DNA from: an uncultured Candidatus Saccharibacteria bacterium
GTDB lineage: Bacteria > Patescibacteriota > Minisyncoccia > Phycocordibacterales > UBA918
Length of the DNA: 27,666 bases
Direction: 5' to 3'
Assembly: GCA_964442205.1 (NCBI GenBank)
Contig: CAYTYF010000002.1
Location: forward strand, 19,336-47,001
In this document: positions 1,158 to 24,975 of the stretch, piece after piece
Layout of the letters: each line of letters opens with the position of its first letter
Position numbering within the stretch: the first letter of the stretch is position 1
Notes under the pieces: model-generated
What the model was told of the DNA's origin: nothing
What the model saw: only the letters and a program-made list of their open reading frames with translations
Database searches by the model: none
Position numbers and translations under genes: made by a program

Positions 1158-3629
1158 TTAGAAGAGTCCGAACAGACCGCTTCCTTCGTCGATGACGTGG
1201 GGTTTGATGTCCCACATGACCGGCTCTTGAGCCTCGTGGTCCACGTCGTCGAGGTAGTCCTCGATAGCGTTTCTGTCTAGGCCGTTCGGTGCGGCGGGCT
1301 CGATGTCCCACATGACCGGACCGCCATCGTCCTGGTTGAAGCTGATCGGCGCTTGACCAGGACGGTTCAAGAGACCTTCGTTCGCGGTCGCCTTACCGGC
1401 GTTGTGGTCCTCCATCTGCTCGAGCAGGTCCTGGCGGTCGTTATGTTCGCGAACTTGAGCCGGCGTCATGTTGTCGAGCGTGTTTTTGACGTCGGCGGGA
1501 TCGTTGATGTCATAGAAACCATTACGTATCGCTGTATCCACGTACGTAAAGGTTTCAGACGAGACAGCCGCTCCGCCGACCAAAGCGGCACCAGTCACAG
1601 CTGCCGGTGGAACAGAGACACCGAGAAGAGCTGCGCCAGCGGGAATGCCCGCTCTGATGAGGGCGCCGGTGCCCATAGCAGCTGCTGTACTTGCAGCACC
1701 CGGCACAACATCGCCTGGTACGTTGTCGAGCGTAAAGATGCCCGGCGCCCTATCGACGATGGGGACGTCGAGACCGTAGTAGACAGTGTCGGAGACTGCC
1801 ATTGCTGGCGGGGTAGTTCCGCGACTGAGCATTGTGCCAGTGAAGATGTCGGTCCCAGCCTTGAGGAAGGGATTTGCGACCAGTCCGGGCGCATACTCCC
1901 TTATCGCGCCACTTATGTACGGAGTAACTTGCAGTGAGAGCATCGTTGACGCCATGCCTGGAGCGTACCGCTCCATGGCCTGCAGTCGATGTGCTTGTTC
2001 TGGGGTCAGGTCGTCGAGACGAGGATCTTCAGGGATCTCACCGCCGACCAGTGCGCGAACTACAATGTTACCGAACTTGACCGGATCAGATGGATTGAGA
2101 TGCTCTTCAAGAGCCGCTTTCGCCTGGTCCGCATTATACTGTGCGTAGACAACATCACTATTAAGGGAAGGTCTACCATCCGCAACGCCTGCTGCATACT
2201 CCGCAGCGTTCACCGCCTCACCCACCAAACGCTTGGTATCGGCGATGTCGTCATCCCGTTCCGTACGGAGTTGCTCCGCGAGGCTCGGACTGTTGACGAC
2301 AGCCTGTACCGCAGCGTCGAGGATCTGCACTCCAACCAGATTGGCGTGCGCGTCGTCGATACCTTTTGCACCGAGCTCAGCTCGGTACTCGGGCAAGCCG
2401 TAGGCATTGCCGTAAGGCTCAGTTGACGGCTGAGTAAGCTGGAGGTTCCTGGTGGCCGCGCGGTCAATGTCGCCGACCGCCATCTTCTCCAGGTTATCGA
2501 GCTCGCCCGGTGCAAGCGGGCGATCAAGCAGATCGCCCGCTTCGATTTCGGTAGCAGGGTCGGGCATGAATCCTGGCCGTGCCATCGGTCGAAGGGGACC
2601 GGCATCAACTGCGTCGGTAGAAGGTCCGTCGACCGGCCGTTGCAGGCTCGCCATGACTTGATTCATGACGAGTTGTTCCGGCGCGGGCCGTGGTTCTGGC
2701 CTGGTGACCATTTCTCCGCCGAAGCCCAGAGGACCAGTATTGGGCAGGTCGAGCGCATCTCCGAGCGATTGCTCGTCCGGAACGAAGCTGCCCGTGACCG
2801 GTGAGTCGAGAGGTGGGCGCGCCATCGTGACCCCGTCCAACCCCTGACCGGGGTCGAGCGAGAATGACGCATTAGGCGCGAGACTGGCGAGCGTGAGCTT
2901 CGAAGTGTCGTCGTAGGAGACGGTCACTTCTGGTCGAGCACGAGGCCCGTCGACCATCTGCCCGACGGTGTACCCGAGTGGGCCGTCTGTCGAAGCCGGC
3001 AGGTCGAGTACCCCCGCAAGCGACATGATGCCTCCCGAAGAGGAGGACTCATTGCCGAAGTCGGGGTGAGTGATGCCGTCGATGGTTCCCAGGTTGGTCG
3101 GAAGTGGCGAAAGACCGAGCGCATGCTCGGCTGCACCTTCGACCGTCATTGGGCTGCCCAATCCAGCACTCAGAGCGCCTGTTGAAACGCTCCCCATCAG
3201 GTCGCCGAGCTTGAAGTCGCTCGGAGGATTGCTCAGCTCAATAGCGACTTTCGACGGAGTGACCGTCGCTGTCGGACGCGGTTCTGGCCGTGAGACGATG
3301 CCGCCGGTCGGGTAACCGTACGATGACCCGTTGCCGTTGTCCGTAACGCCGGCACTGCCGAAGCTGTTGCCTTGGGGGCTGTGATCCGAGCTGCCTGAGC
3401 TGCTCGGTGACGATACGGGTGATCCGGCATTGGGTGAATACGAACTGGGATCGCTGTAACCGGGAGTGGTTTGACCCCCGTAGCCGTTACCAAGAGAATC
3501 ACTGTGGTCGTAGCCTCCGCTTCCGCCGAGACTGTAGCTGTCGCTACCGTAACTGTTATTGCCGAGGGAGTTACTGTGGTCGTAACCACCGGATCCCCCA
3601 AGGTCCGAACTAAAGCCTGCTGCAGGCAT
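1158..3629 (-). CDS. Large acidic, low-complexity repeat protein of unknown function (~823 aa)
   Basis: Long ORF. AGAAGGAAG SD-like sequence precedes the ATG at 3629. Internal repeats GGSGGYDHSxSLGN x2, RPEPRP/RARP/RPMARP motifs, PVMWDIxP x2. Gly/Ala-rich hydrophobic stretch near the C-terminus. Confidence 0.8.
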   Translation of the reverse strand: MPAAGFSSDLGGSGGYDHSNSLGNNSYGSDSYSLGGSGGYDHSDSLGNGYGGQTTPGYSDPSSYSPNAGSPVSSPSSSGSSDHSPQGNSFGSAGVTDNGNGSSYGYPTGGIVSRPEPRPTATVTPSKVAIELSNPPSDFKLGDLMGSVSTGALSAGLGSPMTVEGAAEHALGLSPLPTNLGTIDGITHPDFGNESSSSGGIMSLAGVLDLPASTDGPLGYTVGQMVDGPRARPEVTVSYDDTSKLTLASLAPNASFSLDPGQGLDGVTMARPPLDSPVTGSFVPDEQSLGDALDLPNTGPLGFGGEMVTRPEPRPAPEQLVMNQVMASLQRPVDGPSTDAVDAGPLRPMARPGFMPDPATEIEAGDLLDRPLAPGELDNLEKMAVGDIDRAATRNLQLTQPSTEPYGNAYGLPEYRAELGAKGIDDAHANLVGVQILDAAVQAVVNSPSLAEQLRTERDDDIADTKRLVGEAVNAAEYAAGVADGRPSLNSDVVYAQYNADQAKAALEEHLNPSDPVKFGNIVVRALVGGEIPEDPRLDDLTPEQAHRLQAMERYAPGMASTMLSLQVTPYISGAIREYAPGLVANPFLKAGTDIFTGTMLSRGTTPPAMAVSDTVYYGLDVPIVDRAPGIFTLDNVPGDVVPGAASTAAAMGTGALIRAGIPAGAALLGVSVPPAAVTGAALVGGAAVSSETFTYVDTAIRNGFYDINDPADVKNTLDNMTPAQVREHNDRQDLLEQMEDHNAGKATANEGLLNRPGQAPISFNQDDGGPVMWDIEPAAPNGLDRNAIEDYLDDVDHEAQEPVMWDIKPHVIDEGSGLFGLF

Positions 3630-3649
3630 GCTGCACTTCCTTCTTATCA

Positions 3650-3667
3650 GCGGCAATTAATTGCCGC
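3650..3667. repeat. Perfect 18-bp palindrome upstream of the large gene
   Basis: GCGGCAATTAATTGCCGC, about 20 nt upstream of the start at 3629. Confidence 0.7.
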
Positions 3668-3944: not shown

Positions 3945-4143
3945 GTCCCCGGAATCCTAAGCAAAATTTACACTACGTTCAATTTTGCTAAGGTTCCTGG
4001 ACGGCCGCTCGCATCGCGGGCATTAGGAATAGCCAGCGATATGCTGCGCGGCTTCGATTCCTGACGTACGCAACGAGGTTGCGTACTCTGGGGGCACACA
4101 TGACAAAAGACGGCTTGAGCCGTCTTTTGTCATGTGTGCCCCC
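3945..4143. mobile_element. tRNA-3'-end-associated structured element, tRNA-Arg-matched copy
   Basis: Hairpin 3956-3993 with loop TACACTACGTTC. GGCATTAGGAATAGCC hairpin at 4019-4034. Inverted tRNA-Arg 3' copy TTCGATTCCTG[AC GTACGCAAC GAG GTTGCGTAC T]CTGGGGGCAC at 4053-4097. Perfect 25-bp inverted repeat 4090-4114/4119-4143. The distal direct repeat (3945-3956) is degenerate. Confidence 0.75.
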
Positions 4144-4365
4144 GTGGCGTTGCGGAAAAATACCCATCAAGCCCTGTAAGCGTTTCTTGGTGACTGAAAT
4201 CAGTCTTTCCTGACCCCTCTCGGTAGGGCCTGTTTAAAGCCAGATGTTACAAATCTGACACCCAAACGGCCATTTAATAGGCAACGAATGAGCGATTTTT
4301 TAAAACGGATATGGCTCAAAATAAGGGTATTATCGCTAAAAAAGCCGGTAGTATAATAGAGGTAT

Positions 4366-5082
4366 ATGGACACAAGAAATACACTCTCTGCGCTCCGCCA
4401 AGCTCTCGTACGACGTAAAGCTATCGAGGATCAGGTACGGCAAGCGATAGAACCAATAAAACCAACGCTTCGCTTTATCGCTGAACTTCAGGCTATTTAT
4501 CAGGAAGTATACGGCGCTGAGCCAGTTGCTGAGATATCAGCGGAACCAGCTCTAGAGCCAGTGAAGCAGGTAAAGCCAAAGACCAAGAAGGAGGTCTTAT
4601 TCACTGAGGCGATAGTAAAACTCCCACTTAACGCTAAATGGGAGAAACTCACCATCAGTTTCATCAGTAGCCAAGATATTAAGGTGAAATACGGAGACAC
4701 AACCATCGGTGAGTATTCACACGAGGACTTAGGCTTTGCTCAAGATAATACTGAGTGGAAAAAACCAGACCGACGCTGGGCTCTTTTAACAGTACTGGCA
4801 GTCGCTAGTAAGTTTGAGCCAAAGATGGTGATGACGAAGGATCATCTAATGAACGTCTGCGGAGTGAAATCCCAGAATGCAGTTGAAAAACAAAAGAGTG
4901 ATCTAGCTAAAGGGCTACGCCTTGCGTTTGGCATCCAAGAAGATCCGTTTGAGCGATATACACACGAAACTGGCTACCAGCCCAAGTTCACCCTTCTGCC
5001 TGAAAAAGAGATGCGTGGCGATGGTGAACTACATCATTCAGGAGCGGTAGACTTTGAGGACGTAATATACCAAGACGACTAG
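4366..5082 (+). CDS. Hypothetical protein, possible C-terminal winged-helix DNA-binding domain
   Basis: 238 aa. TATAAT and AGAGG just upstream. C-terminal segment WALLTVLA...NAVEKQKSDLAKGLRLAFGIQEDPF...GY resembles a wHTH (pattern only). Confidence 0.6.
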   Translation: MDTRNTLSALRQALVRRKAIEDQVRQAIEPIKPTLRFIAELQAIYQEVYGAEPVAEISAEPALEPVKQVKPKTKKEVLFTEAIVKLPLNAKWEKLTISFISSQDIKVKYGDTTIGEYSHEDLGFAQDNTEWKKPDRRWALLTVLAVASKFEPKMVMTKDHLMNVCGVKSQNAVEKQKSDLAKGLRLAFGIQEDPFERYTHETGYQPKFTLLPEKEMRGDGELHHSGAVDFEDVIYQDD

Positions 5083-5131
5083 CTTTATAGTGCCCATATA
5101 AATAAGGGTTTACTGTGATAAAATAGGTTTT

Positions 5132-6838
5132 ATGTCAATCGAACGAGGAATTCGGCAAGATGAAACGTGGATCACATCTGATCCAGTAGTTGGGTGTGCT
5201 AAAAACTGCAACTACTGTTTTCTTCAAGGTTATGACAAGACTCAGAAACCAGGTATGCCGATTATGTCGACAGAAAAGGCTGTTGACCAGATTATTTCGT
5301 TCGAAAATTACAGAGAGGATAGTCCAATCATGGTTGGTAGCGAGACTGATGCTTTTATGAATCGGTCAAACATCGACTATTTCACAGAGCTGTTTAAAAC
5401 TTACGCCGAACGAGAGTTGCCAAATCCACTTGTGTTCTCGACTAAGTGCAAAATTCCAGATGAATTCATTGAACTTATAAAGGCAAATGAAGCAATTAAA
5501 ACAGTTTTTTATTTGAGCTACTCAGGTTTGCCACAGACACTGGAACCTGGAATAAAAGGAGATCAGATTAGAAGTAACTTTGAGAGACTCAAAGACGCGG
5601 AGATTCCAACTATCCATTACTGGCGACCGTTTCTCCCACAGAATTCTCATCGTGAAAAGATTCGAGAGATTATTGATTATGTGGCAGAACAAGCTACATG
5701 TAGTGTAGCAGTTGGTCTAAAGAGTAATGATGAAATCATTAAGCACTTGATAGCAGCGTGGCCTGAGCTTGGTGAAAATGCTGATCTGGCAAATCAGTCC
5801 GCTGATGTCTGGCCTGAAGGCGTGAGAGATTATGTAGAGCAGTATACGAGTGAGCGACATCCAGACTATCCGTTGTTTTGGGTGAATTCGTGCGCATTAG
5901 CTTATGCACTGCAACGACCTGATTTCAATGCCATGTTTGAAGGAACGGTATGTGCCGAAAATCATTGCCCTCCAGAACAACGAGAACGATGCGCTATTAA
6001 TCTTCTTGGATATAAGCCGACGAACGATGCCGTACAGGAAGCCTTAGATCAAATGGATTTAGATTACACTTTTGATCTAAACGAAGAAGAGAAGATGATT
6101 TATGTTGACGGTGATGTTAGTCACGGACAACTTATCTACCTGAGACAGAAACTTAACTATCCAATCAAAACACGTGGTGATTTTTCGAGCACCAATGAAT
6201 GGGCTGGTCAAGCATCAAACAGGGAATCAATGCACCTACCGTATGCTTCAGAAAATTTTGATATTGATGTTATCTGGGAACGTGCCCAGTATACTCGCAA
6301 TCTGTTTCGCTCAGTAGAAAGAATTCAGTGGGGTGCTGAACAGTACGCACTTGAGTTAATGGTGCAGGTTGGACACCTTTCTGATTTAGTGTTGCGACAA
6401 GAGCACAAACTTAACAAGCGTTCTGAAGAGGAAAACGCTGATGCTTTGGCTGATGAAATTAGCGATGTGATATTAAATATATTTTCAATTGCCGACGAAT
6501 TTTCTTTGTCGTTGCCGAACTTACTTCGGGATGAAATGGGTTTAAAGCGAACGGAAATAGTAGACAGTGCGCAGTTGGTTGAGGGAAAGCGAATTGAGTC
6601 TGAAGAACAGATTAGTCAGGCAATGCTTGAGCTGTCAAAACAGTCTGCCTTACTTGCGAGCATGGTTACTGAAGTGGTGGAAGATAAAGCAAAGAAAGAA
6701 GACTTAAAGAAAGTTCTCCTAGAAGCGTTTGACGCTGCTATGGCAGTGCTTGATTTCTATAAGGTCAATTTGCATAAAGCTTTCGACAAAATGATCCTAG
6801 AGTCAGAAGCCTTTGTAGAGAAGAATAAGCTTGAATAA
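5132..6838 (+). CDS. Radical SAM enzyme (spore-photoproduct-lyase-like clade) fused to tandem MazG-like NTP pyrophosphatase-fold domains
   Basis: CxxxCxxC motif GCAKNCNYC near the N-terminus; LSYSGL..EP and HYWRP motifs. C-terminal ELMVQVGHL...LADEISDVILNIFSIAD and AMLELSKQSALL repeats have the MazG/dUTPase all-alpha pattern. Confidence 0.75.
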   Translation: MSIERGIRQDETWITSDPVVGCAKNCNYCFLQGYDKTQKPGMPIMSTEKAVDQIISFENYREDSPIMVGSETDAFMNRSNIDYFTELFKTYAERELPNPLVFSTKCKIPDEFIELIKANEAIKTVFYLSYSGLPQTLEPGIKGDQIRSNFERLKDAEIPTIHYWRPFLPQNSHREKIREIIDYVAEQATCSVAVGLKSNDEIIKHLIAAWPELGENADLANQSADVWPEGVRDYVEQYTSERHPDYPLFWVNSCALAYALQRPDFNAMFEGTVCAENHCPPEQRERCAINLLGYKPTNDAVQEALDQMDLDYTFDLNEEEKMIYVDGDVSHGQLIYLRQKLNYPIKTRGDFSSTNEWAGQASNRESMHLPYASENFDIDVIWERAQYTRNLFRSVERIQWGAEQYALELMVQVGHLSDLVLRQEHKLNKRSEEENADALADEISDVILNIFSIADEFSLSLPNLLRDEMGLKRTEIVDSAQLVEGKRIESEEQISQAMLELSKQSALLASMVTEVVEDKAKKEDLKKVLLEAFDAAMAVLDFYKVNLHKAFDKMILESEAFVEKNKLE

Positions 6839-6843
6839 TTAGT

Positions 6844-7488
6844 ATGGAAAATGAACAATTAACCACTTACAACGCCTTCAATCAGCCCATTGGGAAAGCT
6901 GATCGATCTGAAGTGCATAAAAACGGTTTATGGCACCGGTCAGTGAACTACTTAGTTCTCGATCAGCAAAAGCGGACTCTAATCTTTCAAGATTCAAAGA
7001 CTCTAGATCAATTCGATAAGGACACCTTTTTTATCAAGATGAATGGTGGTCATGTTCAGGGTGATGATATGAAAAGTGAGATGGCTCGCGAACTGCATGA
7101 AGAGCTCGGTTTGGAAGCATCTCAAGCGTTGAACATACATTTTCTAGGTGTGTATCAAGTATCGTTCGAGCCAACGGAGGATTTTGTAAACCGTGAGTTC
7201 ATGTATTTTTATCTAGTGAGTTTTGAGAACGTACTACAAAATGTTGGTATGGATGATGCTGAAGTGAAGACAGTTTTAGAAATCCCGATTGATGACACAG
7301 TCGATTTGTTAACTGGTGGGAGAGTGGAAGTTGAGGTGTCTGCAAAAGATGTAAATAGTACAGAAATGAATCTGACTCTCACAAACGAGGCATTCAAGAA
7401 TTTTACCGACGATGCATTGTACTTGAGACTTTTCTTGGCAGCGCAAGATTTTTGCAACGGTAGAGATCCTAAACACATTGTAATTTAG
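6844..7488 (+). CDS. Nudix hydrolase, IPP-isomerase-like subfamily
   Basis: R.EVHKNGLWHRSV N-terminus; Nudix box GGHVQGDDMKSEMARELHEELGL. Starts 5 nt after the radical SAM stop. Confidence 0.85.
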   Translation: MENEQLTTYNAFNQPIGKADRSEVHKNGLWHRSVNYLVLDQQKRTLIFQDSKTLDQFDKDTFFIKMNGGHVQGDDMKSEMARELHEELGLEASQALNIHFLGVYQVSFEPTEDFVNREFMYFYLVSFENVLQNVGMDDAEVKTVLEIPIDDTVDLLTGGRVEVEVSAKDVNSTEMNLTLTNEAFKNFTDDALYLRLFLAAQDFCNGRDPKHIVI

Positions 7489-7520
7489 AACACCCTCGAC
7501 CGGACATGGTCGAGGGTGTT
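7489..7520. terminator. Hairpin between convergent Nudix and NDK genes
   Basis: 13-bp perfect stem AACACCCTCGACC/GGTCGAGGGTGTT with a 6-nt loop. No clear U-tract. Confidence 0.65.
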
Positions 7521-7541
7521 GGTTATGGAGCGTGTTTCGTA

Positions 7542-7961
7542 TCAGAATAGTGACATAACTCGCTCCTTCGAGAAAAAGATCACAGCTTCTCGGAAGAACT
7601 GGTCGAAGTTCATGCTCGAATGTGCGAGGTTGTTGGCTATGTCGGTCCCCATCTTCCGAATGGTTCCCGGCGGACTGAGCTGCGGTTCGTTGATGCCGAC
7701 CAGAAAGTTCAGGCGATCAACTGCTCTGCGGCCGGTGACGATTATTCCGTGACACTCGCCAGAAGTGATGTGCCGGCAGAGGTCTGCGAAGTAGGCTTCC
7801 TCGGCACATTGTTGATAGAACAGCCTCGCCTCAGGAAGAGTGAGACTGCGACGGTCTTGCATAACGATCTCCAACCCGCTGTTGGTGATCATTTCAAGAC
7901 ACTGCTCGACGAGTTCGCGCTCGACACAGTCAGGTTTCAGAAGACACATTGAGTAGATCAT
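7542..7961 (-). CDS. ndk: Nucleoside diphosphate kinase (divergent)
   Basis: LLKPDCVER, PGTIR and NLAHSS (catalytic His). GGAGGT SD precedes the ATG at 7961. 139 aa. Confidence 0.85.
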   Translation of the reverse strand: MIYSMCLLKPDCVERELVEQCLEMITNSGLEIVMQDRRSLTLPEARLFYQQCAEEAYFADLCRHITSGECHGIIVTGRRAVDRLNFLVGINEPQLSPPGTIRKMGTDIANNLAHSSMNFDQFFREAVIFFSKERVMSLF

Positions 7962-8098
7962 TGAACCACCTCCATTGGTGCGAAAATTGGTGTCTGGCTG
8001 CATAATGCCATTATTTTGATAAAAAGCAAGGTTTTCGCTGAAATCTCAGCAGTAGATGGTAGAGGGACCATTAATATAAAACACCCTCGCAATCTACT

Positions 8099-9373
8099 AT
8101 GAGTAATAAAATTACTTGGCACACCGAGACTCGCAAAGTCGATGATCTCGTGCCATACGACAAGAACCCTCGCACCTTGTCGGACAAACAACGTAAAGAC
8201 CTTGAAGCGAGCATTATCAAGTTCTCTCTAGCGGAGATTCCTGCGATCAACACCGATAACACTATCGTGGCAGGGCACGCCAGACTGAAGGTAATGCAAC
8301 TACTCGGTCGCGGGCAAGAAAAAATTGACGTGCGAGTACCAAACCGCACCCTTACCAAAAAAGAGTTCGAGGAATACCTCCTGCGTTCCAATAAGAATAC
8401 CGGCTCGTGGGACTACGAGCTCTTGCAAGGCTTCGATACTGAATTCCTCTTGGATATCGGATTCGATGACGGCGACCTCTCTGACATCTGGGACGATGTG
8501 CTCGAGATTGATGACGATGAGTTCAATCCAGAGAAGGAGCTGAAGAAAGCTGAGAAAACTGACATTAAGTCTGGTGACTTCTTCAAGCTCGGTAGCCACT
8601 ATCTCATCTGTGGTGACAGCACGAACCCCGAGACAGTGAAGCGACTCGTTGGTGATACCAAGATCGACATGTCATATGTAGATATTCCGTACAATATCGG
8701 ACTTTCGTACGATAAAGGCATCGGTGGCAAGAAGAGCTACGGCGGTGTCGTTGACGATAAGAAGACAGACGCTGAGTACCGCACCTTTGTACGTACACTA
8801 ATGCAAAATGCGGTGGACGTTTCTGCTAAGGACTCGCACCACATCTGGTACTGCGATTCAGCGTATGTAGGCATGCTTCAAAACCTATTCGTTGAGGCAG
8901 GTATCGCATACAAACGCACTGCACTTTGGATCAAAAACGGTATCAATCCAACGCCACAAGTAGCGTTCTCGAAAATCTACGAGCCTGCGCTCTACGGCAC
9001 GATTGGTAAACCGTACCTCTCTAAGAAACACACCAAGCTCGCCGAGATTCTGAATAAAGATATCGGTATTGGTAACGCTACCATCGATGATGTCACTGAC
9101 ATGATCGATATCTGGCTCGCTAAGCGTGACGCAGGTCAATCCTACGATCACCCAACGCAGAAACCGCTGTCTCTGCATGAGCGACCACTTAACCGTTGCA
9201 CCAAGATCGGTGATAACGTACTCGATCTCTGTGGTGGTTCAGGTTCAACCCTCCTTGCGTGTGAGCAAATGAAACGTAATGCGTTTCTGGTCGAGCTCAA
9301 CCCCGTCTTTGTTCAGGTAATCATCAACCGCTATGAAAAATTCACTGGCACCAAAGCTACCAAGATCAATTAA
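8099..9373 (+). CDS. ParB/Srx-N domain fused to an N6/N4 DNA methyltransferase (beta arrangement)
   Basis: LVPYDKNPR...IVAGHARL (ParB-like). DIPY catalytic motif variant, HPTQKP, and VLDLCGGSGSTL SAM-binding motif. Confidence 0.85.
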   Translation: MSNKITWHTETRKVDDLVPYDKNPRTLSDKQRKDLEASIIKFSLAEIPAINTDNTIVAGHARLKVMQLLGRGQEKIDVRVPNRTLTKKEFEEYLLRSNKNTGSWDYELLQGFDTEFLLDIGFDDGDLSDIWDDVLEIDDDEFNPEKELKKAEKTDIKSGDFFKLGSHYLICGDSTNPETVKRLVGDTKIDMSYVDIPYNIGLSYDKGIGGKKSYGGVVDDKKTDAEYRTFVRTLMQNAVDVSAKDSHHIWYCDSAYVGMLQNLFVEAGIAYKRTALWIKNGINPTPQVAFSKIYEPALYGTIGKPYLSKKHTKLAEILNKDIGIGNATIDDVTDMIDIWLAKRDAGQSYDHPTQKPLSLHERPLNRCTKIGDNVLDLCGGSGSTLLACEQMKRNAFLVELNPVFVQVIINRYEKFTGTKATKIN

Positions 9374-10148
9374 GACGGGGGACATCATCTGTCTTGGTGA
9401 GCACGTCCTTATCTGCGGTGATTCTTCCAAGGTAGACCTCTCTGTCTACGGGAACATCGACCTCTTGCTGACCGACCCGCCGTACGGCGTGGACTACGCT
9501 GAAAGCAAGCGTGGCATCGGCAAGATTGCCAAGGATAAAGACATCTCTAATGACGGATTTATGTCCGACCAACAGTACGTTGAGTTCACGAAGAGCTGGC
9601 TTTCTCCAGCACTGGTGAAGCTGTCCAAGAAAAACAGCATCTACATCTTCAATTCCGACAAGATGATCTTCGCTCTCCGTCAGGCCTGCCTTGAGGCAGG
9701 TATGAAAATTGCCCAACTTATCGTCTGGGTGAAGGATCGAGCGATTGTCGGGAGACTCGACTACCTGCCGCAACACGAACTCATTCTCTACGGCTGGAAA
9801 GGTACGCACGACTTCAAGCGTGGCAAAGACAAGTCAGTCGCGTTCTACCCAAAGCCTTCGCAAAGCAAACTCCACCCGACGATGAAACCAGTCGGACTAC
9901 TCCGCAGACTGATTCTTAACAGTACGAAGGTTGGTGACACCGTCTATGACCCATTTGGTGGCAGTGGCTCAACCTTGATTGCCTGCGAGCATACGAAGCG
10001 TAAGTGTATTACGGTCGAGATGGATCCAGAATATTGCGAAACCATCGTTGCTCGCTGGCTAAAACTCACTGGTAATGGACAAGCGCGAGAAGCGGATACA
10101 GGAGCGGATCCTGAAACAGCAAGAGAAAGTACTCCAGTCTCTGCGTGA
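9333..10148 (+). CDS. Second N6/N4 DNA methyltransferase
   Basis: LTDPPYG, HPTMKPVGL and DPFGGSGST motifs. Overlaps both neighbours. Confidence 0.9.
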   Translation: MKNSLAPKLPRSIKTGDIICLGEHVLICGDSSKVDLSVYGNIDLLLTDPPYGVDYAESKRGIGKIAKDKDISNDGFMSDQQYVEFTKSWLSPALVKLSKKNSIYIFNSDKMIFALRQACLEAGMKIAQLIVWVKDRAIVGRLDYLPQHELILYGWKGTHDFKRGKDKSVAFYPKPSQSKLHPTMKPVGLLRRLILNSTKVGDTVYDPFGGSGSTLIACEHTKRKCITVEMDPEYCETIVARWLKLTGNGQAREADTGADPETARESTPVSA

Positions 10149-10515
10149 ATCGGGTAACGTGAGCTTTGCGTGCAAGAAGGCTGGTCTCAGTCGAGAGACG
10201 TACTATCGCTGGATGAAGGAGGATGAAGACTTTGCAGTACAGGCTGATAAAGCGATTGGTGACGGCAAGAGTTATGTAAATGACTTGGCGCATAATCAGC
10301 TTATGCGAAGTATCAGTGAAGGCTACTTTCCAGCCATCAAGTTTCAGTTGAGTAACTGTCACGATGATTATCATCCGAAGAAGACCACTTCACCGTACCG
10401 TCTTGAAGAGATGACACCACCAATCACGATTACCTCCATTCCAACTATCGCTCGCCTTGAGCGATATCGAGAGTTTATCGAGAATGGAGGTCACCCCGAC
10501 GATTGGGAAGGATAA
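10075..10515 (+). CDS. Phage terminase-small-subunit-like HTH protein (phBC6A51-like)
   Basis: LQSLRESGNVSFACKKAGLSRETYYRWMKEDEDF HTH pattern, located immediately after a ParB-MTase as in phage packaging modules. Confidence 0.7.
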   Translation: MDKREKRIQERILKQQEKVLQSLRESGNVSFACKKAGLSRETYYRWMKEDEDFAVQADKAIGDGKSYVNDLAHNQLMRSISEGYFPAIKFQLSNCHDDYHPKKTTSPYRLEEMTPPITITSIPTIARLERYREFIENGGHPDDWEG

Positions 10516-10760: not shown

Positions 10761-10771
10761 TCACTATTGGG

Positions 10772-10843
10772 TGCCCCCAGCAGGAATCGAACCTACATCA
10801 AGAGCTTAGAAGTCTCCTGTTCTATCCATTGAACTATGGGGAC
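10772..10843 (-). tRNA. tRNA-Arg(UCU)
   Basis: Cloverleaf: acceptor GTCCCCA/TGGGGGC, anticodon loop CTTCTAA, T-loop TTCGATT. No encoded CCA. Confidence 0.95.
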
Positions 10844-22378: not shown

Positions 22379-23371
22379 TCATGCATTCTTTCCCTCTCTT
22401 AGCGAGGTGTAGTAGGCGAGGAGTACAAACCCGAGACCAATGAGACCGGTGAAGGTTTCCGGCACGTGCGCGACCAGGTTTGCCAACATGGCCACCGAGA
22501 GACCGAGTATCGCCCAGTGCGCGCCGTGTTCGAGGTAGACGAGCTCGCTTAGGGTGTTGCGGCGAACGAAGTGAAGGGTGATGGCGCGCACGAAGTAGGC
22601 GCCGATACCAAGGCCCACCATGATGATTATGAGATTGTTAGTGAGAGCGAATGCTCCAATGACGCCATCGAGTGAGAACGCTGAGTCGAGCACGTTGAGG
22701 TAGATGAAGAGGGTAGCTCCGGTCGCCGCTACCTCGGTGCTCTCGATGGAGAGGCTGCCAGCGACACCCTCCATGATGATGAAAAGAATAAGTCCAAAGA
22801 GTCCTGCTACCAGGATCTCAGATTGATCGTAGGCGGTGAAGTACGAGAGTCCTACGAGTACGGTGAGTGCGAGCGCTATCTCAATCGCCTCGATGTGGCC
22901 CCAGCGCACCAAGTGCTGTTCTATCACGTGTATCCAATGAACCGATTTTGCTTTATTGAAGAAGTACTTAAGCGACACCATGAGGAGGAACACGCCGCCG
23001 AAGGCAGTTATGGTTCCGTGCACTGCTTCTAGCAAGTGGCTGTATTCGACAGGGTCGTTGAAGACCAGGGAAGTGATGTAGAAGGGAGAAGCGGCCACCG
23101 CAATGCTCACGATCACTATCGGCAGCACGAAGCGAGTACCGAAGACCGCGAGCAGAATACCCCAGGTAAGAAAGCGCTTCTGCCACACAGGACTCATACG
23201 CTTCAGAATACGCGCGTTAACCACAGCGTTGTCGAAGGACAGCGTGACCTCAAGTGCGGTCAGTATCGCAACGAGCAAAAATGCGTTGAAGCCGAGCTCG
23301 TACCAGATACCTAGAAAAATACTAAAGCAGAGAATTGATGGCCAAAAGAAGGTGTTGCGTATCAGAGACAT
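22379..23371 (-). CDS. DUF475/TerC-like membrane protein
   Basis: LEVTLSFDNAVVNA, LDSAFSLDGVIGAFA and YLEHGAHWAI motifs. Start uncertain (23371 or 23383). Confidence 0.85.
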   Translation of the reverse strand: MSLIRNTFFWPSILCFSIFLGIWYELGFNAFLLVAILTALEVTLSFDNAVVNARILKRMSPVWQKRFLTWGILLAVFGTRFVLPIVIVSIAVAASPFYITSLVFNDPVEYSHLLEAVHGTITAFGGVFLLMVSLKYFFNKAKSVHWIHVIEQHLVRWGHIEAIEIALALTVLVGLSYFTAYDQSEILVAGLFGLILFIIMEGVAGSLSIESTEVAATGATLFIYLNVLDSAFSLDGVIGAFALTNNLIIIMVGLGIGAYFVRAITLHFVRRNTLSELVYLEHGAHWAILGLSVAMLANLVAHVPETFTGLIGLGFVLLAYYTSLREGKNA

Positions 23372-23637
23372 GGCGACAAGCATACCGTGTCGGTCTGTGG
23401 TCAGCAAAGGATAAATCTTGGTCCCCTGCTCTACATGACCATAACTCACACCTAAGTCTCAAATGTAACTGGAGCGGCATGGCGTGAAGGTCTAGTTTCC
23501 AACGCTTTTGACCAATTAAAATAGGCTTTTTCCTAGATTCGGGAGCTGTCAAAACAAGGTATTTTAGAAGAAACCATGGATACTCAATTTATATTTGGTA
23601 GGTATACTATGGATTAACTAAATAGTAAGCAACAATT

Positions 23638-23859
23638 ATGGAACATAAAGTGATACCTTTTCATCCAACAGTGACAGACAAAGCTGGCTTTTCACAAGCC
23701 GCTAAAGAGTTAGAGGACATCATTAAAACCCAGAGCAGTCAGGGTTGGCGATTCGTCTCATTGCAGTCAATGTCAACCACAGTGAAGCCGACTGGCTGTG
23801 CGTCAATTGGTGGCAAAGAGGAAGTAAAAACATTCCAACTCGTCATCTTCGAAAAATAG
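23638..23859 (+). CDS. Small protein, DUF4177-like
   Basis: 73 aa: EHKVIP...ELEDII...QGWRFVSL...LVIFEK. Confidence 0.6.
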   Translation: MEHKVIPFHPTVTDKAGFSQAAKELEDIIKTQSSQGWRFVSLQSMSTTVKPTGCASIGGKEEVKTFQLVIFEK

Positions 23860-23862
23860 TTT

Positions 23863-24165
23863 ATGTTAGCGTCCTTGTGTAAAGCGGTGATACGACTCTA
23901 CTGGTACGCAATCCCAAAGGAGAACCGTATTGTCTGTCTCTACAAAGATCATTGCTCACAGCACGTATACAACGCTTTTGACCGTGAGGGCTTTGTTGCC
24001 GGAATGAAGGCATTTTTGAAGCGATACAAAAACTGCAATAATAACTATACCTGTGAACTTCATGATGGTTCAGTAACTGTAAAGACGGCGACAGGAGAAG
24101 TCATTAATGAAACTGAAATAAGTGATTTAGTGCTTTCGGGTTGTCGGGTGGTCCTAAATAAATAA
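23863..24165 (+). CDS. YidD-like (membrane protein insertion efficiency factor / haemolytic domain) protein
   Basis: IRLYW.AIP...CLYKDHCSQHV...GF..G...F..RY..C cysteine pattern. Confidence 0.7.
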   Translation: MLASLCKAVIRLYWYAIPKENRIVCLYKDHCSQHVYNAFDREGFVAGMKAFLKRYKNCNNNYTCELHDGSVTVKTATGEVINETEISDLVLSGCRVVLNK

Positions 24166-24375
24166 ATTTACATTCGATAAGAGAACCGCAAAGCACTTTC
24201 ATTTCAATAGCAATTACATTGTCGATACCCACGAAGAGGAAGGTTTCAACCAAGAGGGGCGGCTCTCAGTCCTCGAGTGGGAACTGTGCCTTGCTTGATT
24301 AAGCGAGACAAGGGTTTGTTTCCGGTGATAGGGGAGAAAGTGGTTCCTCTGGGTTGGTAAGGAGATGCGTGTAGA

Positions 24376-24636
24376 CTATCCGTACAGCTCACTATGTGAA
24401 CCAATAGCAACAAATCTCACGATATTATTATCGATAACAAAATACACAGCTCGGGTGTCTCCAGTAACGTTGATACTAAAGTGGTCTTTCCATTTACCAG
24501 AAAGACGATGATTGCGCAGAGTGGGATTTTGTGGATTCTTCACAAATTTTTCCAAAGTAGCAACAGCTTTCTCTTTGGTTGCTTTCGATAATTTAGCAAA
24601 ATCTTTCTCAAATCGCTTTGAAAGAACGTATTGCAT
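24376..24636 (-). CDS. YafQ/RelE-family type II toxin
   Basis: KRFEKDF.KL...LRNHRLSGKWKDHFSINVTGD.RAVY...IGSHSELY. Confidence 0.9.
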   Translation of the reverse strand: MQYVLSKRFEKDFAKLSKATKEKAVATLEKFVKNPQNPTLRNHRLSGKWKDHFSINVTGDTRAVYFVIDNNIVRFVAIGSHSELYG

Positions 24637-24637
24637 A

Positions 24638-24919
24638 TCACAGAGACTTCAGGTGAGCAATAAAATCCTCTCCAGTTTTGAACGGACCAACGAAATCACC
24701 AGCTTCGTATTCAGCCTGAGCTTGCTCAAGAATACTCTCCAGATACGGAGTAGGGCGGTATTGGTTGGCAGAAAGAGTGATTTCTTTATCACGCACAAAC
24801 TGCTTAAGGAATGCATTAATGACGGTACTCAAAGGCACACCCAATTCCTCTGACACTTTCTTAGCTTCAGCTTTTAGTTTTTTGTCAGTTTTGATATTTA
24901 AAATAGTGTGTGTATTCAT
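24638..24919 (-). CDS. RelB/DinJ-family antitoxin
   Basis: RHH pattern LNIKTDKKLKAEAKKVSEELGVPLSTVINAFLKQFVR; ends 1 nt before the toxin start. Confidence 0.9.
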   Translation of the reverse strand: MNTHTILNIKTDKKLKAEAKKVSEELGVPLSTVINAFLKQFVRDKEITLSANQYRPTPYLESILEQAQAEYEAGDFVGPFKTGEDFIAHLKSL

Positions 24920-24920
24920 A

Positions 24921-24955
24921 TACCAAAGTATATATTTTGGTATTATTTATGTCAA
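24921..24955 (-). promoter_or_regulatory. TA operon promoter with overlapping operator palindrome
   Basis: TTGACA (24955-24950), 17-nt spacer, TATACT (24932-24927). TACCAAA-N8-TTTGGTA palindrome at 24921-24942. Confidence 0.7.
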
Positions 24956-24975
24956 TTACTCAATCTGCTCAATCT

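Follow-up and report, generated by a model that had tools for sequence, protein, structure and literature searches.

Radical S-adenosylmethionine (SAM) enzymes that remodel nucleotides, viperin and the thionucleoside synthases among them, give rise to chain terminators and antibiotics. In Photorhabdus asymbiotica, the three genes of thmABC encode a radical-SAM enzyme, a nucleoside kinase, and an NTPase that together yield 4'-thiothymidine, the NTPase providing self-resistance (PMC12691670). Here, we describe a three-gene cassette in a 27,666-nucleotide stretch of DNA ("the window") from an uncultured Candidatus Saccharibacteria bacterium (GenBank assembly GCA_964442205.1, contig CAYTYF010000002.1, positions 19,336 to 47,001, forward strand). 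The cassette, 2.9 kb in length, encodes a radical-SAM enzyme fused to a helical domain, a Nudix hydrolase, and an extra nucleoside diphosphate kinase (NDK). These three genes are one discrete, horizontally mobile accessory unit, a delimitation that is new in this analysis, and the reading that we favor, at about even confidence, is that the unit makes or processes a modified nucleotide.

A Discrete Mobile Unit of Three Genes

How far does the cassette extend, and does it keep to a single genomic site? The host is a Saccharibacteria-type bacterium of the candidate phyla radiation (CPR) with a genome of 929 kb, and the closest loci are labeled Candidatus Saccharibacteria. Nucleotide comparison (blastn) of the window with four relatives (L001, L064, L013, and L015) gave matches of 69-71% identity confined to 5113/5116-7811/7974, the match to L013 stopping sooner than the others, at 7811 (Table 1). 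The cassette is found in four unrelated genomic contexts, the window included. In L001, it lies between EF-P and RecA; in another relative, a PhD/PemK pair flanks one end, and genes for a large serine recombinase, a Schlafen/AlbA_2 protein, and two NOV_C proteins flank the other; and in a third, it stands with RarA and a 241-aa open reading frame (ORF), homology to the window being wider here (4136 to 8071). In the window itself, a 238-aa ORF lies on one side, with two ParB-type DNA methyltransferases, a terS-like helix-turn-helix (HTH) gene, and a tRNA-Arg on the other. The radical-SAM and Nudix genes have a GC content of 40-41.5% vs. 51-58% in the flanks, a dip that the L001 copy shares, while the NDK gene, at 52%, is host-like.

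Table 1. Positions of the cassette and its parts in the window
Feature	Position	Strand	Description
Whole three-gene cassette	5113..7974		Block of nucleotide homology common to relatives with unrelated flanks (blastn)
Radical SAM-helical fusion ORF	5132..6838	+	568 aa; followed by a 5-nt gap (6839-6843), then the Nudix ORF
Radical-SAM domain, residues 1-372	5132..6247	+	C22xxxC26xxC29, HYWRP motif, four-Cys site, small alpha/beta extension
All-alpha NTP-pyrophosphatase-like domain, residues 373-568 (196 aa)	6248..6838	+	Built like dimeric dUTPase
YfcD/IDI-like Nudix hydrolase, 214 aa	6844..7488	+	Nudix box R82-E83-x-x-E86-E87 intact
Hairpin	7490..7521		13-bp perfect stem between the convergent Nudix and NDK genes; read from sequence
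Accessory NDK, 139 aa	7542..7961	-	Pfam NDK; convergent; ORF at its longest 7542-8003

An initial annotation, made from the sequence, had described this gene order, with the 5-nt gap and a convergent NDK that keeps its catalytic His; all of this held, as did the coordinates. The real start of the NDK gene is probably the ATG at 7961, which gives a protein of the same length as in relatives and is also where the initial annotation had the module end. The hairpin between the convergent genes is likely a bidirectional terminator; a simple terminator scan, which requires a T run, did not call it. An 18-nt direct repeat (TAAT.TA.AACACCCTCG, 16/18 identical) at 7481-7498 and 8072-8089 brackets the NDK gene, its first copy being the left arm of this hairpin and its second lying where homology with the relative L063 ends (8071). 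At 4091-4150, a long hairpin formed by a perfect ~22-bp inverted repeat stands at the start (4136) of the homology with L063, which is 82% identical; this hairpin could be a terminator or mark the boundary of an element.

The trait is rare. The family occurs in 3 of 41 relatives within the lineage, two of the three being distant paralogues, and, elsewhere in the phylum, the module turned up in 3 of 400 genomes. Weak radical-SAM matches in genomes G004 and G027 were set aside as distant paralogues beside AlaRS-like and aldo-keto reductase genes, not the cassette module. A tblastn search of 50,697 phage genomes and a pattern scan of IMG/VR found no copy.

The initial annotation also placed the genes on a tRNA island. 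A tRNA-Arg (10770-10843) does lie 2.8 kb from the cassette, and Rfam identified three tRNAs in the window and nothing else; in some other genomes, however, the cassette has no tRNA nearby. The end of the tRNA-Arg has no direct repeat, only an 11-nt match, and a search near the cassette found neither an att-like repeat nor an integrase. We therefore reject tRNA-linked integration and consider the island the wrong frame, the tRNA being incidental to the setting. Between the cassette and the tRNA-Arg (8099-10515) are two overlapping DNA methyltransferase genes, the first a ParB-N-domain-fused N6/N4 methylase of 424 aa and the second an N6_N4 methylase of 271 aa whose end is overlapped by a terminase-small-subunit-like HTH ORF; this segment looks like an integrase-less relic of a phage or mobile element.

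A Divergent Radical-SAM Domain with a Second Cysteine Site

Searching 1.84 billion representative sequences with the radical-SAM domain (E <= 1e-3) recovered 373 relatives (clusters at 50% identity), which makes this a small family. Across 100 homologues, the three Cys of the radical-SAM motif, a second set of four (C254, C274, C279, and C287), the HYWRP-motif residues H162, R165, and P166, and K105, E138, T72, and D73 are conserved at 90% or more, and the Cys residues are invariant in a set of 20 sequences. The pattern suggests that the four extra Cys bind an auxiliary Fe-S cluster or form some different metal site. The domain is a divergent member of its superfamily: it scores 23.5 bits against Pfam PF04055, below the cut-off of 29.5, while some relatives pass.

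The AlphaFold2 (AF2) model of the domain is confident (pLDDT 95.2, pTM 0.92) and has the partial TIM-barrel fold of radical-SAM enzymes, matching more than 40 solved members at Z 13-16.5 over residues ~4-252. In the VIA structure comparison, the best match for residues 4-252 was spore photoproduct lyase (SPL, Z 16.5), followed by the activating enzyme of pyruvate formate-lyase (PFL-AE, Z 16.2), RlmN, SuiB, and SkfB (about 15), and viperin (about 14). Because PFL-AE, RlmN, and SuiB fall within 1.5 Z units of SPL, kinship with SPL holds at the level of the superfamily; the label "SPL-like" in the initial annotation is fair at that level only. Models for SPL gave no match among the Pfam and NCBIfam results at E <= 0.1, and a sequence search of the Protein Data Bank (PDB) with the fusion protein returned noise only (troponin C and similar). 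The nearest clusters in the ESM Atlas are unnamed actinobacterial radical-SAM proteins with the whole 370-residue domain in common (TM 0.8-0.89), the nearest labeled ones are DUF1848/SPL, and relatives carry the label "DNA repair photolyase" at JGI. The enzyme is not a viperin, in line with the doubt voiced in the initial annotation: no viperin model matched in PADLOC at E <= 0.1 (the library is expected to include pVip) or in NCBIfam, and viperin ranks structurally below SPL and PFL-AE.

An Altered dUTPase-Like Helical Domain

What is the helical domain to which this enzyme is fused? Its AF2 model, built alone, has a pLDDT of 90, and, among 48,161 chains compared by VIA, dimeric dUTPases took the top three places (Z 11.2, 9.6, and 8.9) with the whole domain covered. 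Lower matches, each on the first half, were RS21-C6/DCTPP1 (Z 7.5), MazG 1vmg (Z 6.5), YpjD, AF1178, and HisE. For helical bundles such Z values are modest, although the matches agree with one another and span the domain. Foldseek placed dUTPases alone at TM 0.5-0.6, most other rows being generic helical bundles at about 0.2, with no match at E <= 0.001. The sequence profile of the domain found MazG-like structures only, weakly (E 0.01-0.6), and the Pfam MazG/MazG-like score of 15.5 bits is below the cut-off of 27. On the strength of the VIA fold matches and the weak MazG-like profile matches, we assign the domain to the all-alpha NTP-pyrophosphatase superfamily, in agreement with the MazG fold proposed for this C-terminus by the initial annotation.

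The metal site of the domain is unusual. In an alignment of 18 diverse homologues, which include C-terminal fusions, N-terminal fusions, and free-standing proteins, E408, Q412, H415, D441, E442, D445, F392, E396, and W400 are invariant. The second motif, D441-E442-x-x-D445, is canonical, with E442 and D445 aligning with the EExxD metal motif of MazG. Four acidic ligands (E-x-x-E plus E-x-x-D) are not all present, the first pair reading Q412/H415; judged by spacing and helix periodicity, these two residues appear to stand in place of the first E-x-x-E pair. Because Q412 and H415 are themselves invariant, the site is altered, not decayed. The initial annotation was correct in reading VQVGH at the first acidic motif, although the domain is not a degenerate MazG; the second repeat of that annotation, KQSAL, was not confirmed as a motif. 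The two halves of the domain have no significant sequence similarity (hhalign E 0.037), on which ground we reject an internal repeat, nor does the second half contain any conserved motif or invariant acidic residue.

The Nudix Hydrolase and the Extra NDK

The Nudix protein clears its Pfam family comfortably (PF00293, 35.3 bits vs. a cut-off of 21.1). Its Nudix box reads G-x5-D-x7-RELHEELGL, with R82, E83, E86, and E87 invariant or nearly so, and the alignment of module-linked Nudix proteins keeps these four along with H25, W30, H31, G68-G69-H70, and E118. In a profile search against the PDB, E. coli YfcD (1e-11) and human IDI2 (2e-10) were nearest, with IDI1 also found; IDI is the type-1 isopentenyl diphosphate (IPP) isomerase. 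Matches to Idi and YfcD families were sub-threshold, NCBIfam NF002995 (type-1 IDI) giving 33 bits vs. a cut-off of 127. In the alignment with IDI2, the position of the catalytic Cys is a Gly (G-G-H instead of C-x-H). Since the Nudix box is intact and this Cys is replaced, the protein is expected to be a hydrolase, not an isomerase.

The NDK is an unmistakable Pfam member (PF00334, 90.2 bits vs. a cut-off of 27) and keeps the catalytic His, its NLAHSS aligning with NACHGS of solved NDKs. It is a divergent paralogue, because it scores 86 bits against the NCBIfam NDK equivalog, below the cut-off of 155. The same genome carries a second, lineage-typical NDK with an insert of ~30 residues on another contig. 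All 40 relatives searched have only the insert-bearing type, the cassette type being absent, and the cassette NDK stays with the cassette in the four contexts. In the lineage NDK (G000 contig C43:4996-5514), the insert breaks the Pfam match in two, at model positions ~52 and ~53, and is conserved throughout the genus and order sample. A further Saccharibacteria-order genome (L062, G031:C2, 1813-6997) has a second, uninterrupted NDK without a radical-SAM gene, its neighbors being a small Nudix, a class I/II aminotransferase, and an ATP-grasp gene.

Recurrence across Distant Taxa

Is the association of these domains peculiar to Saccharibacteria? We gathered 44 loci of the radical-SAM family from Saccharibacteria, Shapirobacteria, Gracilibacteria, Clostridia, Bacilli, Alphaproteobacteria, Streptomyces, and others. 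The helical domain is present in 31 of them, whether fused N-terminally, fused C-terminally, or encoded by a neighboring gene, and a Nudix gene lies within 5 kb in 31/44 as well. The triad of radical SAM, helical domain, and Nudix recurs in CPR, Bacillota, and Alphaproteobacteria; loci without partners mostly belong to the Streptomyces/Kitasatospora group or to truncated contigs. A kinase slot is frequent and non-orthologous, filled by proteins of four folds: NDK (4 loci), dNK/TMK-like (10), P-loop proteins weakly similar to HPr kinase (7), and APH-like. The grouping described in the initial annotation, of enzymes handling nucleotides around a radical-SAM enzyme, is thus borne out widely by Nudix, MazG-like, and kinase neighbors. 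Equally recurrent, and unforeseen there, is a link to sugar enzymes: a sugar-nucleotidyltransferase (NTP_transferase) occurs in 13/44 loci and a UDP-GlcNAc 2-epimerase in six, with GT2 glycosyltransferases and a calcineurin-like phosphoesterase also frequent neighbors. Domains fused to the radical SAM across the family include NTP_transferase, nucleoside-deoxyribosyltransferase-like, TIR, HD, and calcineurin-like domains.

A FastTree phylogeny of 137 radical-SAM domains places the window protein in a well-supported clade of 81 that contains nearly all of the helical-domain fusions together with the NTP_transferase fusions; on this tree, the helical-domain fusion arose several times. The TIR fusions and the nucleoside-deoxyribosyltransferase-like fusion fall in a sister clade with 33 members, where best BLAST hits also place the Rhizobiales plasmid genes. 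The latter belong to a conserved operon of a radical SAM, an RNase_T-type 3'-5' exonuclease, an AAA_28 kinase-like protein, and an HD phosphohydrolase, seen on Sinorhizobium meliloti pSymA (L057, 6938-10725) and Labrenzia pBCL1 (L058, 7112-10731); a Streptomyces plasmid (L056) has this operon as well. On pSymA, it directly follows a patatin/DncV-like/ThiF locus of the cyclic oligonucleotide-based antiphage signaling system (CBASS), and we regard the operon as a candidate for an uncharacterised defense or antimetabolite system. The exonuclease and the AAA_28 protein also accompany the Streptomyces radical SAMs that group in the same clade as the window protein. Because the TIR fusions and CBASS-side operons belong to the sister clade, the evidence for a conflict system, though real, is mostly one clade removed from the window protein.

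Does the cassette match any described defense system? PADLOC 2.0 gave no match for four window proteins (E <= 0.1); among relatives, it recognized TIR, DUF4062, and Metallophos parts but never the radical-SAM domain. A defense role, which the initial annotation had raised, rests on the sister-clade TIR fusions and on some island-like contexts. Ophion (radical SAM, PHP, and PRTase) was considered and judged to be different, being viperin related. A literature search found no paper describing the radical-SAM family, and the sole radical SAM mentioned in the conflict-systems paper of Aravind (2020) is unrelated and peptide modifying. No match from Enterobacterales was present among the plasmid matches or the named database matches of the family.

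One clade-II radical SAM has been sampled widely (L066/L067, 7001-10105; a cluster of 148 members). Downstream of it are a small methyltransferase, a guanylate kinase, and a DUF402 protein, and it adjoins rpsF-ssb-rpsR.

Other Features of the Window

An 832-aa ORF on the reverse strand (1158-3656), with a long, repetitive Ser/Gly/Asp-rich N-terminal region and a hydrophobic Ala/Gly-rich stretch, is probably a surface or secreted protein. A second GC dip at 23000-26000 (40-46% vs. ~54%) suggests another foreign segment.

Discussion

What might such a cassette do? The scheme that we favor, synthesis or processing of a modified nucleotide, infers its chemistry from the domain identities and genetic linkage set out above. 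The active sites of the radical SAM, the helical domain, the Nudix hydrolase, and the NDK look intact. The extra NDK would convert a nucleoside diphosphate to the triphosphate, and the fused dUTPase/MazG-like domain would hold the nucleotide via a metal-phosphate site altered to Glu/Gln/His plus Asp-Glu/Asp. The radical-SAM domain would then abstract a hydrogen atom from the bound nucleotide, with the four-Cys site, as a probable auxiliary Fe-S cluster, taking part in the chemistry, after which the helical domain and the Nudix protein would cut pyrophosphate or phosphoanhydride bonds. Such hydrolysis might trim the product to its mature mono- or diphosphate form, or it might keep an analogue triphosphate from the producer's own polymerases as a form of self-protection. 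A pyrimidine (deoxy)nucleotide is our guess at the substrate, by analogy: the helical domain has its best structural neighbors in dUTPases and in RS21-C6, a dCTPase, the radical SAM has SPL as its top neighbor, and TMK/dNK-like kinases occur in other versions of the module. The biological role would most likely be conflict related, as a putative antiviral or antibacterial antimetabolite.

Several points weigh against this reading. No member of the radical-SAM family is known to be characterised, its core fits many families about equally (Z 14-16.5), and the substrate assignment is a guess. With Gln and His replacing two metal-binding Glu, the helical domain could bind a nucleotide without hydrolysing it, and the N-terminus of ThmC (MRQRIIVC, translated from a primer) does not resemble this domain. 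The L001 copy, between EF-P and RecA, sits at an ordinary chromosomal site. Finally, the sugar-nucleotidyltransferase, GT2, and epimerase genes in many loci suit a nucleotide-sugar substrate at least equally well.

That last point leads to a serious rival, made so by the transferase and epimerase neighbors: a nucleotide-sugar or glycan pathway, in which the radical SAM alters the sugar of an NDP-sugar gripped at its nucleotide by the helical domain. The Nudix and helical domains would hydrolyse NDP-sugar by-products, the product would pass to glycosyltransferases that decorate the envelope, and Saccharibacteria would have kept the core and the NDK only. Nudix enzymes often hydrolyse NDP-sugars. 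Besides the 13 loci with NTP_transferase, which P0061 carries as a fusion with the radical SAM, and the six with the epimerase, the recurrent link to sugar enzymes supports this rival through GT2 neighbors, a GT2 fused to the helical domain in L044, a P0032 gene lying within a GT2/HAD/hexapeptide-transferase/NTP_transferase cluster, and a P0016 locus with GT1, pyruvyl transferase, and GT2. Yet neither the window cassette nor any of the four syntenic relatives has a sugar enzyme, and only the three genes move; dNK/TMK-like kinases and NDK work on nucleotides, not sugars; and the pairing of radical SAM with exonuclease, nucleoside-kinase-like AAA_28, HD, and TIR in sister branches is not the logic of a glycan pathway. 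We consider this rival unlikely, if worth serious attention. A reversal of pyrimidine lesions by an SPL-like radical SAM, with the hydrolases and NDK recycling the products in a salvage-dependent organism, would draw on SPL as top structural neighbor, the DUF1848/SPL Atlas clusters, the JGI label, the adjoining RecA in L001, and the RNase_T exonuclease partners of other branches. Such a repair or salvage function seems to us highly improbable: the rarity, atypical GC, and mobility of the cassette are unlike those of a housekeeping function, SPL has neither the auxiliary Cys site nor a fused NTP-pyrophosphatase, the SPL models of NCBIfam went unmatched, and PFL-AE, RlmN, and SuiB score nearly as well as SPL.

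MazG-type and dNTP-degrading enzymes act in phage-host conflict, and the cassette might likewise deplete or sanitise the nucleotide pool, the helical domain and Nudix protein destroying (d)NTPs upon infection and the radical SAM acting as a sensor or regulator, not a synthase. The surroundings speak for this, in that one relative lies between the PemK toxin-antitoxin pair and the serine recombinase, NOV_C, and SLFN/AlbA_2 genes, the window copy adjoins orphan ParB-DNA methyltransferases and a terS-like gene, and sister-clade members are TIR fused or beside CBASS. However, an NDK makes NTPs and is hard to reconcile with depletion, the invariance of the radical-SAM and auxiliary Cys sites points to catalysis, and the altered metal site speaks against a simple NTPase of high turnover; PADLOC models, moreover, match none of the three proteins, nor the radical-SAM domain of relatives. 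Depletion is, in our judgment, quite unlikely. Somewhat different in kind is the view that the functional unit consists of the fusion and the Nudix protein only, with the NDK as a passenger, which fits the host-like GC of the NDK gene (52% vs. 40-41% for the other two), its presence in only 4/44 loci, and its convergent orientation, which means that it is not co-transcribed. We hold this to be very unlikely, given that the NDK is part of the homology block in each of the four contexts, that this extra copy is missing from all 40 relatives searched, and that other versions of the module have a different kinase in its place.

The observations of the initial annotation are thus confirmed and its interpretation partly supported, and we return to the modified nucleotide as the favored product. 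More tentatively, as a possibility that we rate below that reading, the family may be a large, uncharacterised group of nucleotide-analogue synthases outside the viperins, each with an auxiliary Fe-S site, a captive dUTPase-like holder, its own kinase, and detoxifying hydrolases, packaged as a mobile conflict cassette that supplies an antimetabolite. Partners of the family, namely kinases of four folds and all-alpha NTP-pyrophosphatase-like, Nudix, HD, and calcineurin-like hydrolases, point to nucleotide chemistry. If this is true, an episymbiotic Saccharibacterium would gain an antiviral or anti-host antimetabolite of new chemistry. Genome-reduced CPR bacteria lack de novo nucleotide synthesis, and the cassette may reveal scavenged nucleotides being used by them as weapons or shields. 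Its compactness, at three genes, offers an easy starting point for finding a nucleotide analogue and a radical-SAM reaction, both of them new.

Comparison with Known Systems

How does each component differ from its closest described relatives? The SPL/DUF1848 group (COG1533, "SplB") has the CxxxCxxC core, and SPL superposes on the window radical SAM over 240 residues with an rmsd of 3.3 Å (Z 16.5). Identity is, however, ~13%, there is no Pfam or NCBIfam SPL match, and the window family differs in its four extra invariant Cys, its 120-residue C-terminal extension, and its fused or linked nucleotide hydrolases. The helical domain shares the fold of the all-alpha NTP-pyrophosphatases (dimeric dUTPases, MazG, DCTPP1/RS21-C6, and HisE; Z 11.2-6.5) and their second metal motif, E-x-x-D, but has Q412-x-x-H415 for E-x-x-E and an extra invariant E408, and the cassette type never stands apart from a radical-SAM enzyme, being either fused to it or encoded next to it. 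In the Nudix protein, the three His of the IDI metal site are conserved (His25, His31, and His70), and YfcD and type-1 IPP isomerase are its best sequence relatives; the cassette protein differs in the Gly at the catalytic Cys and in a C-terminal extension of ~60 residues.

At the level of the whole system, prokaryotic viperins resemble the cassette in being radical-SAM enzymes linked to a nucleotide kinase, accessory and patchily distributed, with both plausibly acting on NTPs, yet viperins are without the auxiliary Cys site, the fused NTP-pyrophosphatase-like domain, and the Nudix partner of the window family. In thmABC (PMC12691670), the kinase ThmB is of the AbmG/dNK type, not an NDK, but the cassette and thmABC would seem, by analogy of gene make-up, to be of one design: a three-gene set of radical SAM, kinase, and triphosphatase that moves between unrelated contexts.

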